This document shows positions 36,549 through 38,770 of a stretch of DNA of 64,000 nt, piece by piece. Both the position numbers and the translations under genes were made by a program. The stretch is from Candidatus Ryanbacteria bacterium RIFCSPLOWO2_12_FULL_44_26 (GTDB lineage Bacteria; Patescibacteriota; Minisyncoccia; Ryanbacterales; HO2-45-13), in assembly GCA_001821765.1 (NCBI GenBank), contig MHOA01000001.1, positions 174,078 to 238,077 of the forward strand, given 5' to 3'. The notes beneath the pieces were generated by a model, which saw only the letters and a list, made by a program, of their open reading frames with translations, was not told the origin of the DNA and ran no database searches. The stretch's first letter is position 1, and each line of letters begins with the position of its first letter.

Positions 36549-38770
36549 TATGATCCACGCACAGGTTCCCCTACGCGTGCCTTGTTACGACTTCGTCCCT
36601 GTCACTGAGCTTAGCTTAGACCCCGCTAAAGCGGGGGCTTTGGCCACTCCCAGCTTCCTTGACGTGACGGGCGGTGAGTACAAGACTTGAGAACGTATTC
36701 ACCGCGGCGTGCTGATCCGCGATTACTAGCGATTCCAACTTCATGAGGTCGAGTTGCAGACCTCAATCCGAACTGGGGCCGGTTTTGATGGGATTGGCTC
36801 CCCCTTGCGGGTTGGCAACCCATTGTACCGGCCATTGTAGCATGTGTGTAGCCCAGGGCATCAAAGGGCCATGCTGATTTGGCGTCATCCCCACCTTCCT
36901 CCCAGCACCACTTTTCTCAAACTTGAATGCTTGCGCATCCTTGTCATTTCAAAAGAATGCAGCCATATAAATATGGTACACCTTAAGAAAAGTGGCGCTG
37001 GGCGGTCCCCTGAGACACGTATAACTCAGGGCAGGGGTTGCGTTCGTTAACCCACTTAAGGGAACAGCTCAAGCCACGAACTGACGACAACCATGCAGCA
37101 CCTGTCCCGCCGTCCTTGTGAGAAGTTCCGGCTTTCACCGGGATTTCGTCGGGATGTCAAGCCCTGGTGAGGTGCTTCGCTTGTCATCGAATTAAACCAC
37201 ATGCTCCACCGCTTGTGCAAGTCCCCGTCTATTCCTTTGAGTTTTAGCCTTGCGACCGTACTTCCCAGGCGGATGACTTAACGCGTTAGCTTCGCCACTG
37301 GAAGGGTCGATACTTCCAATAGCTAGTCATCATCGTTTAGGGCGTGGACTACAAGGGTATCTACAATGTTGTTACTTACTTGGAAATTGAGTTTCCAAGT
37401 CGGGCAAGTTATTTCTACTTACCTCTCTATGTCGCCATAGAGTTCGGACTATATCATCCCCGCCTACCAAAAATAAGTGCCGGCGCGCGATGAGTACATC
37501 GCGCGCGGCATAATTATTGTTGGCGGGGCTCGGCGTATAGTCTCTGAGGGGTCCTTCAACTTCGTTCAGGACTTCCCTGCTGGTTGTCCGCTTCGCTCAT
37601 CAGATTTTTACTACAGTATACTGTAGTACTGTGAGATTTTTGCGGGCTTTCCAGCATATAGCTCCCTCATCGCTCTCGCGATTTCGGGATCCGCAATTTT
37701 GCAATCGCTCTCCGCCAACTGGCGGATTGCGAGCAAAATTGGGACAAGTTTTTTAACCACGTGCGTTTCGCACATGGGGACTAGCGCTCGATACACCCTT
37801 TATATCTCGCTCATGTGAGCGAGCGCCTTTTTGCGCAAATCTTGCGGAGGCAAGATTTGAAATCAAGGAGCTTCGCAGAAAAATTCATCTGTCCGGGCAC
37901 GCCCGAAGGGCGGCGCAGTTTTGAATTTTTCGTCGCGAAGCGACTATGATTTTTTCTTGCCGAAACTCAATTTGCAGCAAAAATGGTGCGAGCGATTGTT
38001 AATCCTCTTTGATCCCCACGCTTTCGTGTTTCAGGGTCAGGTATGCGCCAGCGTACTGCCTTCGCCTTCGGTGTTCCCCACGATATCTACGGATTTCACC
38101 CCTCCACCGTGAGTTCCGTACGCCTCTCGCATCCTCCAGCTATGCCGTTTCCTGCCCATTTTCCCGGTTAAGCCGAGAGCTTTAAAGCAGGACTAACATA
38201 ACCCCCTACACACCCTTTACGCCCAGTGATTCCGGACAACGCTTGGGCCCCTCGTCTTACCGCGGCTGCTGGCACGAGGTTAGCAGGCCCTTATTCAATC
38301 GGTACTGTCATCCCGGCAAGCCGAGATTCATCCCGATTAAAAGCAGTTTACGTCCCGAAGAACTTCATCCTGCACGCGGCGTCGCTCGATCAGGCTTTCG
38401 CCCATTGTCGAAGATTCTCGACTGCAGCCACCCGTAGGTGTTTGGGCCGTGTCTCAGTCCCAATGGTGGGGGTCACGCTCTCACGTCCCCTAGCCGTCAC
38501 TGCCTTGGTGAGCCATTACCTCACCAACAAGCTGATAGCCCGCAGGCCGCTCCTTAAGCGAATTGCTTCTTTCGTGTTACCACAATATCGGGAATTAGCT
38601 CCGGTTTCCCGGAGTTATACCCGACTTAAGGGTACGTACCTACGTGTTACTACCCCGTTTGCCACTCTCCCTCGACTTTCTTGCGAAAATCTCGGGAGCG
38701 TTCGACTTGCATGCCTTATCCACGCCGCCAGCGTTCGTCCTGAGCCAGGATCAAACTCTCATTGAAGATG
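36549..38770 (-). rRNA. rrs: 16S ribosomal RNA gene containing a 638-nt intervening sequence
   Basis: Minus strand reads AGAGTTTGATCCTGGCTCAG at ~38750-38769, then GTGCCAGCAGCCGCGGTAA and GGATTA|...|GATACCCTTGTAGTCC. The 3' end is ...GTCGTAACAAGG...GGATCATATCCT at ~36549. Total length ~2220 nt, or ~1580 without the insert. Confidence 0.92.
37364..38001 (-). other. intervening sequence (group I-like intron) in 16S at the GGAU|UAGAUACCC junction (E. coli position ~788)
   Basis: Exon sequence is restored as GGATTAGATACCC when 37364..38001 is removed. The 5' exon ends in U and the insert ends in G (TAACAATCG...CAACATTG). The only internal ORF is 61 aa (37611..37796) with no LAGLIDADG or GIY-YIG motifs. 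Confidence 0.6.

Follow-up and report, generated by a model that had tools for sequence, protein, structure and literature searches.

What interrupts the 16S rRNA gene in a 64,000-nt stretch of bacterial DNA (contig MHOA01000001.1, positions 174,078 to 238,077; hereafter the window), and to which class of intervening sequence does the interruption belong? An earlier note, made from the DNA letters alone, had pointed to a 638-nt insert in this gene. We examined the insert through rRNA alignment, RNA family models, secondary structure, coding capacity and comparison with introns at the same site in other genomes. It is very probably a group I intron without an open reading frame (ORF), lying between U788 and U789 of the 16S rRNA of a Parcubacteria-like member of the candidate phyla radiation (CPR). 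All positions are window positions, and the features are collected in Table 1.

A 638-nt insert splits the 790 loop of the 16S rRNA gene

The minus strand of the window holds a bacterial 16S rRNA gene that is complete (38766..36543; Rfam RF00177, 1354.6 bits) and has a length of 2224 nt compared to 1533 in the model. The Rfam small subunit (SSU) rRNA alignment places 643 nt directly 3' of GGAUUA where the consensus has 5, yielding 638 extra nt at the location proposed in the earlier note (37364-38001). That note gave no strand; both gene and intron lie on the minus strand. In RNA sense, the 5' exon ends in ...GGGGAUCAAAGAGGAU, the insert runs from UAACAAUCGC... to ...CAACAUUG, and the 3' exon resumes with UAGAUACCCUUGUAGUCC; read at greater length, the 3' junction is ...GUAACAACAUUG followed by UAGAUACCCUUGUAGUCC. 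Excision of 38001..37364 recreates GGAUUAGAUACCC, the conserved sequence that removal of the insert had been expected to restore. Excision shifted by one base (38000..37363) does so equally well, because a U is repeated at the junction.

The exact boundary is fixed by the ends of introns that occupy the identical junction at 14 other loci, described below. These introns open with U, C or A immediately after GGAU, and they end in a G immediately before UAGAUACCC in 13 of the 13 with a readable 3' end (the intron of locus L009 runs into Ns and was left out of the 3'-end counts). Since the intron ends of the relatives settle the one-base ambiguity, the insertion site is established as U788/U789, that is, GGAU followed by UAGAUACCC. 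We take 788/789 to be the E. coli numbering of this site, primer 785F presumably starting at GGATTAG. The readable relatives other than L029 (12 introns) end in ...AACAA(A/U)(A/U/C)UUG before UAGAUACCC, and the L029 intron ends in ...AACAAAAUG. The group I boundary rule cited in the earlier note, a 5' exon ending in U and an intron ending in G, is thus obeyed, and a guide sequence that pairs with the exon is present in addition.

A chimera or other artefact would be favored by the origin of the DNA in a metagenome assembly, since rRNA regions are easily misassembled. However, contigs from three independent ENA metagenome assemblies agree at 100% identity over the rRNA region, two of them also sharing both flanks, and homologous introns are found at the same site in 14 independent metagenome-assembled genomes (MAGs). 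We set an assembly artefact aside because the three independent assemblies agree completely, and consider it scarcely credible.

The insert carries a complete group I core

The Rfam group I intron model (Intron_gpI, RF00028) matches 37708..37425 on the minus strand with 63.2 bits (gathering threshold 50), at E-values of 1e-13 when the whole window is scanned and 1e-15 when the insert is. The full model (positions 1-253) is covered. A permissive Rfam scan of 37300..38060 returned no other RNA family at E<=1, group II models included. The comparison with group I and group II models that the earlier note had suggested therefore comes out for group I. The match accounts for 284 of the 638 nt because of two large inserts, one of 198 nt in the P1 loop (L1) and one of 82 nt in the 5' strand of P3. 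The whole intron folds with z = -15.6 relative to shuffled sequences. The characteristic group I elements are in place: an omega-G at the 3' splice site (37364), a 5'-exon U paired to a guide G, as judged by sequence complementarity alone, and the core helices P3, P4, P6, P7, P8 and P9, with support from covariation. These observations establish the group I identity of the insert and the integrity of its core. Of the earlier description as "ORF-less or degenerate", the first term is upheld and the second is not, as every core helix is intact.

The core also bears on two readings in which the insert is no intron at all. An intervening sequence (IVS) processed by RNase III, a simple stem at the tip of a variable helix, was ruled out by the group I core together with the location in the 790 loop. 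Retention of the insert as an expansion segment in mature 16S rRNA would find parallels in the 92-nt insert in helix 40 of the same gene, which carries no ribozyme signal, and in the many unclassified insertions in CPR rRNAs described by Tsurumaki et al. (2024; PMC11270868). Yet the group I core of the insert is complete, the site lies within the universally conserved sequence of the 790 loop (helix 24) itself and not at a variable helix tip, and CPR insertions are reported in the same paper to be absent from transcripts. We therefore regard an expansion segment as very improbable.

Same-site introns in CPR genomes

To collect relatives, one genome per GTDB species was scanned with the core motif AGAGACUA-N(54-84)-GAUAUAGUCCGAAC, which gave 50 loci, and the window exons were compared to these loci by BLAST to find introns at the same junction. 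Fourteen of the 50 carry an intron at the identical junction, with lengths of 489-1213 nt. Their labels include Parcubacteria, Sungbacteria, Harrisonbacteria, Taylorbacteria, Giovannonibacteria, Staskawiczbacteria, Campbellbacteria, Paceibacterota and Saccharibacteria, and two are labeled only "bacterium" or "uncultured bacterium". Patescibacteria or "bacterium" labels thus apply to 13 of the 14; the remaining one is Bdellovibrionaceae (L015). This establishes a CPR same-site family, and shows that S788 hosts a coherent intron lineage in CPR genomes, mostly without recognizable endonucleases. Among the other classified loci, a number lie in 23S rRNA genes of bacteria and archaea (19 loci outside S788 are unclassified), and one, L013, has an empty S788 site, its motif hit being outside its 16S gene.

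Within the intron-motif loci, the window exons are 73-91% identical to the 16S genes of Patescibacteria MAGs, with the best match to the Giovannonibacteria locus L029 (90.8% over 327 nt). Because the exons are closest to this locus, we call the host Parcubacteria-like. The L015 intron lies on a 5.98-kb contig (JAHFAF010000002.1) in a Bdellovibrionaceae MAG, its 16S exons are 74-85% identical to those of the window, and the contig is probably mis-binned.

Covariation supports the core helices

The elements follow the same order in all 15 introns (the window and its 14 relatives): 5' splice site, a short P1a, an L1 insert that varies between introns, a small hairpin with a G-rich loop, guide sequence, P2, A-rich J2/3, P3, J3/4 UAUA, P4, J4/5, P5 with its extension, P6, J6/7, P7, P3', P8, J8/7, P9 (GNRA loop), P9.1 (AGAAAU loop) and a variable tail with a final G. 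J3/4, J6/7, J8/7, the U.G pair at the 5' splice site and the terminal G are conserved among the introns.

We aligned P3, P4, P7 and P9 of the 15 introns without gaps. Standard pairs are formed by 97.9% of the alignment cells, compared to 22-38% when the 3' partner was slid by 1-3 columns as a control. Thirteen pairs changed on both sides, in P3 (4/6), P4 (4/6) and P9 (5/7). The covariation score of 0.491, against 0.176 for shuffled alignments, was reached by none of 500 shuffles. P7 is invariant in this set and uninformative, because the search pattern fixed both of its strands. By inspection, the strands of P6 and P8 differ in a compensatory manner between introns, and the inner stem of P6, whose loop holds a small ORF in eight relatives, covaries.

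The perfect 10+10 palindrome picked out in the earlier note is present (37609..37628). It forms an 8-bp hairpin with a UAUA loop in the P5 extension, where the relatives have hairpins of other sequence flanked by GUAC...GU(G/A)AAAAUC, and is an ordinary peripheral hairpin. At the other end of the intron, most relatives have a terminal hairpin in which the last 10 nt (AACAAAAUUG) pair, as its 3' strand, with CAAUUUUGUU; examples are the 3' ends of L010, L021, L028, L043 and L050.

P1, the L1 domain and a candidate extended P10

The 5' splice-site U (U788) is position 38002. The guide motif (C)UAGUCCC is kept at the same relative place in the relatives; guide positions were assigned by eye for the window, L010 and L008. 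Beyond P1, the helix P1a closes a 210-nt L1 domain, which folds with -90.7 kcal/mol (z = -7.0). P1a has equivalents of different sequence in the relatives (GUUC/GAAC, UUCG/CGAA, GCUC/GAGC). The 198 nt between its strands (37988..37791) fold into three hairpins: one that is long and imperfect, a small one, and the one with the G-rich loop. The L1 insert has no second copy in the 64-kb window by blastn and gives no Pfam signal.

The G-rich loop is complementary to the 3' exon. Of the 14 introns whose 3' exon can be read, the window included, 13 have a complement of 6-7 nt; the intron without it is L029. Exon UACCCC goes with loop GGGGUA in four introns, and exon AUACCC(U) goes with loop (A)GGGUAU or GGGUAUC in eight. 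Taken singly, these complements are just mildly unlikely, with shuffle frequencies of 0.02-0.09. The GGGG type is found in two intron sub-lineages, L047 having the P4-P6 type of L010, whose loop differs. The match between loop and exon has thus changed at least twice. An extended P10, formed by pairing of the loop with the 3' exon, is a reasonable reading of this pattern.

An 82-nt domain splits the 5' strand of P3

In the window, a domain of two hairpins, A and B, breaks this strand into CUUG and GC; the partner GCCGAG lies at 37534..37529. The Rfam alignment deleted the P3 5' strand because 82 nt split it. The pairing follows from the relatives, as the six bases are contiguous (CUUGGC:GCCGAG) in L030, L031 and L050. 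Two other P3 pairings that had been considered, GGGAGCU/AGCCCC and UUGGCG/CGCCGA, were dropped on account of this contiguous CUUGGC.

The insert folds with -46.2 kcal/mol (z = -6.5, frequency of the minimum free energy (MFE) structure 0.54). A homologous insert is present at the same position in the Sungbacteria intron L021. Relative to the window, hairpin A of L021 shows compensatory changes from A-U to G-C and from C-G to U-A; the second hairpin differs in sequence yet likewise has a GNRA-type loop (GUGA). That a second lineage has kept the insert, with changes that compensate each other, speaks for selection on its structure. A metagenome scan for the P3-insert motif found no lineage beyond L021, returning two contigs whose intron is 100% identical to that of L021. 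A hit in L056 was rejected as an unrelated intergenic hairpin. Hairpin A (CAAUUUUGC...GCAAAAUUG) resembles the terminal hairpin of the relatives in sequence, which hints that it may have arisen by duplication of that hairpin.

The inserted length of the intron is structured peripheral RNA and not ORF debris, and the L1 and P3 inserts may act as peripheral stabilizing domains. No description of the split P3, of the L1 with several hairpins or of the exon-complementary loop was found in the text (figures aside) of the literature searched, and these may be unreported detail. It is conceivable, though we put it forward only tentatively, that they define an undescribed architecture confined to a Parcubacteria-wide S788 lineage, combining a multi-hairpin L1 under P1, a split extended P10 that tracks the exon, and an insert in a P3 strand. 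In such an architecture, the loop of an L1 hairpin may pair with 3' exon positions 4-11, and a conserved two-hairpin domain would interrupt the P3 strand in the lineage of the window and in one Sungbacteria lineage.

The intron encodes no recognizable endonuclease

The largest ORF with a start codon on the RNA strand encodes 61 aa (37611..37796); it starts with GTG, has no Shine-Dalgarno sequence, and overlaps structural RNA (the guide sequence, P2, P3, P4 and P5). In the earlier note this was the only internal ORF. It is the largest on the RNA strand but not the only one, as several further ORFs of 30-49 aa exist on both strands, likewise with no match in Pfam. The 61-aa ORF has no Pfam match, and at E<=1 neither an endonuclease nor any other credible Pfam domain was matched by the ten longest stop-to-stop segments of the six frames (47-74 aa). 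The absence of a homing-endonuclease ORF, as stated in the earlier note, is thereby established at the level of Pfam domains, and the intron is not a mobile intron with a LAGLIDADG, GIY-YIG, HNH or His-Cys box ORF. A blastn search of the window for a second copy or mobile repeat of the intron returned just the self-match and the palindrome. In view of the missing endonuclease gene, the intron was most likely inherited vertically or descended from a copy that moved earlier.

About 11 of the 14 relatives do contain small ORFs, of 45-87 aa, preceded by a Shine-Dalgarno sequence and located in the P6 loop, the P5 loop or L1; this observation covers the S788 introns of L008, L009, L010, L015, L021, L022, L028, L029, L031, L033, L043, L047 and L050. 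The encoded proteins have nothing credible in Pfam, NCBIfam or PHROGs and look unrelated to one another. A search of a 5.8-billion-protein database with the L009 protein returned itself alone. The ORFs of L009 and L022 have 57 of 82 residues in common, with in-frame indels and pN/pS 0.39, and on these grounds their shared small ORF looks like a real gene. Annotation of ORFs by Pfam, as in Tsurumaki et al. (2024), would count introns with such small ORFs as ORF-less.

A mobile intron with an unrecognized small endonuclease, encoded for example by the 61-aa ORF, could thus appeal to these Shine-Dalgarno-preceded ORFs in the peripheral loops of the relatives, whose families are unrecognized, and to the one pair that looks selected. 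In the window, however, the ORF has neither a ribosome-binding signal of this kind nor a Pfam match, starts with GTG, crosses five structural elements from the guide sequence to P5, and sits at a position matching no ORF position in the relatives; P6 and P5, which bear ORFs in relatives, are short hairpins here. We consider this explanation quite improbable and retain that of an ORF-less intron.

Proposed splicing and evidence against it

The structure suggests standard group I chemistry. The guide CUA-G-UCC (37784..37778) would pair with the exon end GGAU, a U788.G wobble completing P1. An external guanosine would dock in P7 (GACUAU/AUAGUC) and attack after U788, whereupon the terminal G (37364) would take the G site. 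CUA:UAG pairing would hold the 3' exon in place, probably together with the loop AAGGGU (37800..37795) on ACCCUU. Ligation of the exons would produce GGAUUAGAUACCC, restoring the 790 loop in a 16S rRNA of about 1586 nt. The intron probably does splice, given a core that is intact and selected, and the published absence of CPR rRNA insertions from transcripts.

Several observations weigh against a functional group I intron. The RF00028 score is modest, merely 13 bits over the threshold, and the model cannot align the 5' strand of P3. P7, invariant in the alignment, adds no covariation support. P1 consists of four exon pairs and two intron pairs followed by an A.C mismatch, and the adjacent P10 has 3 bp. 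The 5' strand of the terminal hairpin is absent in the window (37379..37364) and in L029. Finally, 82 nt in the strand of a core helix and 198 nt in L1 are unusual, and self-splicing in vitro could be slowed or abolished.

These points leave some room, because of the unusual inserts and the short P1 and P10, for a decayed relic that does not self-splice, and is either excised by host nucleases (of RNase III type, giving a fragmented 16S rRNA) or dependent on a host protein cofactor. The atypical large inserts in L1 and in the P3 strand, the modest Rfam score and the lack of an encoded maturase or endonuclease would all fit a relic. Furthermore, many nuclear rDNA group I introns with peripheral insertions fail to self-splice in vitro, according to PMC8395846. 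Decay is nevertheless difficult to reconcile with a core whose helices are all intact and match those of a covarying family, with the conservation of J3/4, J6/7, J8/7, the U.G pair and the terminal G, and with the compensatory changes in the P3 insert of a second lineage. In addition, a nick in the 790 loop would strike a functionally conserved loop. A relic is therefore unlikely, and we favor an intact group I intron.

Table 1 Features of the group I intron and its junctions, in RNA order (window positions)
Feature	Position	Strand	Basis or remark
Whole group I intron, 638 nt	37364..38001	-	RNA 5' end 38001, omega-G 37364; SSU alignment, RF00028, 14 same-junction relatives
P1 5' strand: exon GGAU (38005..38002) and intron UA (38001..38000)	38000..38005	-	Pairs with UAGUCC 37783..37778
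P1a 5' strand CGCUCG, closes L1 insert	37989..37994	-	MFE fold pairs it with 37790..37785
L1 insert: long imperfect hairpin 37988..37824 and small hairpin 37823..37806	37806..37988	-	MFE fold
Hairpin with loop AAGGGU (37800..37795), candidate extended P10	37790..37806	-	Loop complements 3' exon ACCCUU
P1a 3' strand CGAGCG	37785..37790	-	MFE fold
Internal guide sequence CUA-G-UCC	37778..37784	-	CUA (37784..37782) with 3' exon UAG (P10); G37781 with U788; UCC with exon GGA
P2 hairpin CCAUGUGCG-AAA-CGCACGUGG	37757..37777	-	L029 at the same place: CCAUGCGCA...UGCGCAUGG
P3 5' strand part 1, CUUG	37745..37748	-	CUUG+GC pairs with GCCGAG
Two-hairpin domain, 82 nt, inside P3 5' strand	37663..37744	-	A: UCCGCC/GGCGGA stem; B: GAGA tetraloop
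P3 5' strand part 2, GC	37661..37662	-	Helix table and covariation
J3/4 UAUA and P4 5' strand UGCUGG	37651..37660	-	Helix table and covariation; 4/6 P4 pairs changed on both sides
P5 and peripheral extension, including palindrome hairpin and A-rich AAAAAUC	37586..37647	-	Comparison with relatives
P4 3' strand CCAGCA	37578..37583	-	Helix table and covariation
P6 GGG-AA-GUCCU ... AGGAC-CCC, 12-nt loop without ORF	37548..37577	-	Helix table
J6/7 UCAGA, P7 5' strand GACUAU, AC, P3 3' strand GCCGAG	37529..37547	-	Rfam, helix table, covariation
P8 CCCCGCC ... GGCGGGG with extended inner hairpin	37458..37528	-	Rfam, fold, helix table
J8/7 AUGAU and P7 3' strand AUAGUC	37447..37457	-	Rfam, helix table
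P9 CUCUAUG-GCGA-CAUAGAG, GNRA loop	37425..37442	-	5/7 P9 pairs changed on both sides
P9.1 GGUAAGU-AGAAAUA-ACUUGCC and P9.2 CUUGGAAA...UUUCCAAG	37379..37423	-	AGAAAU loop conserved in the family
3' tail UAAGUAACAACAUUG, ends in omega-G (37364)	37364..37378	-	Window sequence and ends of relatives
3' exon start UAGAUACCCUU	37353..37363	-	Target of P10 pairings

Surroundings of the 16S gene

The helix 40 insert occupies 36906..36997 on the minus strand and gives the loop 92 nt against 5 in the Rfam consensus. It folds into a long stem (CCACUUUUCU / AGAAAAGUGG) and has no ribozyme match; it may represent an IVS or else an expansion segment. After the 16S gene come tRNA-Ile (35737..35663), a stretch of about 7.5 kb with protein genes, and tRNA-Ala (28153..28081); a gene for a copper-type P-type ATPase (32880..35438) lies between the two tRNAs. 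No 23S or 5S rRNA match was found anywhere in the 64-kb window, and the rRNA genes look unlinked. One relative, L008, has a Parcubacteria 16S gene (2631..5220, minus strand) with an S788 group I intron, and a few hundred bases past the 3' end of this gene there is also a match to domains D1-D4 of group II introns (RF01998, 48 bits, 2180..2293).

Comparison with known systems

Introns in CPR rRNA genes are well documented. Tsurumaki et al. (2024; PMC11270868) found insertions in 48% of 380 CPR 16S genes and assigned 134 of 378 16S insertions to group I with the same Rfam model, 49 of the 134 having no annotated ORF. They met insertions in highly conserved rRNA regions only, the conserved sites being shared by versions with and without an ORF. 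CPR rRNA insertions are reported to be absent from transcripts (Brown 2015, as cited there). Nakagawa et al. (2026) reported group I introns in about 40% of Patescibacteria genomes. The window intron shares the host group, the host gene, the RF00028 class and the ORF-less type with the introns of PMC11270868. Together with the labels of 13 of our 14 relatives, the 48% figure bears out the view of the earlier note that an intron-bearing 16S gene is a CPR trait. The text and supplement of Tsurumaki et al. give no site numbers, and S788 may be one of their sites 16IS4-7; unlike our analysis, the text contains no secondary structure, L1 or P3 inserts or exon-complementary loop.

The site itself has a precedent in eukaryotes, as the earlier note had recognized. 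S788 is a group I site in nuclear SSU rRNA, and the classical site of IC1 introns in fungal and myxomycete nuclear rDNA, according to PMC8395846 and PMC1299323 (the latter citing Haugen 2004). Those introns, such as Mcr.S788, occupy the same SSU position, are usually ORF-less and share the trait of peripheral insertions, there in P1, P2.1 or P9 (PMC8395846). They differ in host domain, and the likeness to the window intron described here is one of position and traits. Of the P2/P2.1 and P5abc architecture looked for in subgroup IC1, the window intron has, by reading, P2 and an A-rich P5 extension and lacks P2.1. The Tetrahymena large subunit (LSU) rRNA intron, the IC1 archetype, presumably has a near-identical J6/7-P7 (..AGACUA..) and J8/7-P7' (GAUAUAGUC), and we take J4/5 AAA, the A-rich P5 extension and the GNRA L9 to be further points of likeness. 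Compared to Tetrahymena, the window intron has no P2.1, a 198-nt multi-branch P1 loop and a P3 5' strand broken by two hairpins.

Among bacteria, giant sulfur bacteria likewise have group I introns in their 16S genes (Salman et al. 2012), which according to PMC11270868, where that work is cited, are the only experimentally characterized ones. The core-motif scan that gave the relatives of the window intron also returned a Thiomargarita contig (L037).

For surveys, the consequence of the intron is practical: judging by the junction sequence, it splits the binding sites of 785F and 806R, which are used more widely than any other 16S primers, and it makes the gene 638 nt longer. This organism would therefore be expected to be missed or mis-handled in amplicon surveys and by pipelines that filter on length. 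The insert in the P3 strand and the loop complementary to the exon are structural oddities that can be tested, and leave the overall picture unchanged. Tsurumaki et al. (2024), Nakagawa et al. (2026) and the nuclear S788 introns between them provide precedents for the phenomenon, for the host gene, for the lack of an ORF and for the site. Thus, the intron adds one well-resolved example to the known abundance of CPR rRNA introns; it is well formed and, not being new in kind, belongs to a class already documented as common in CPR bacteria.

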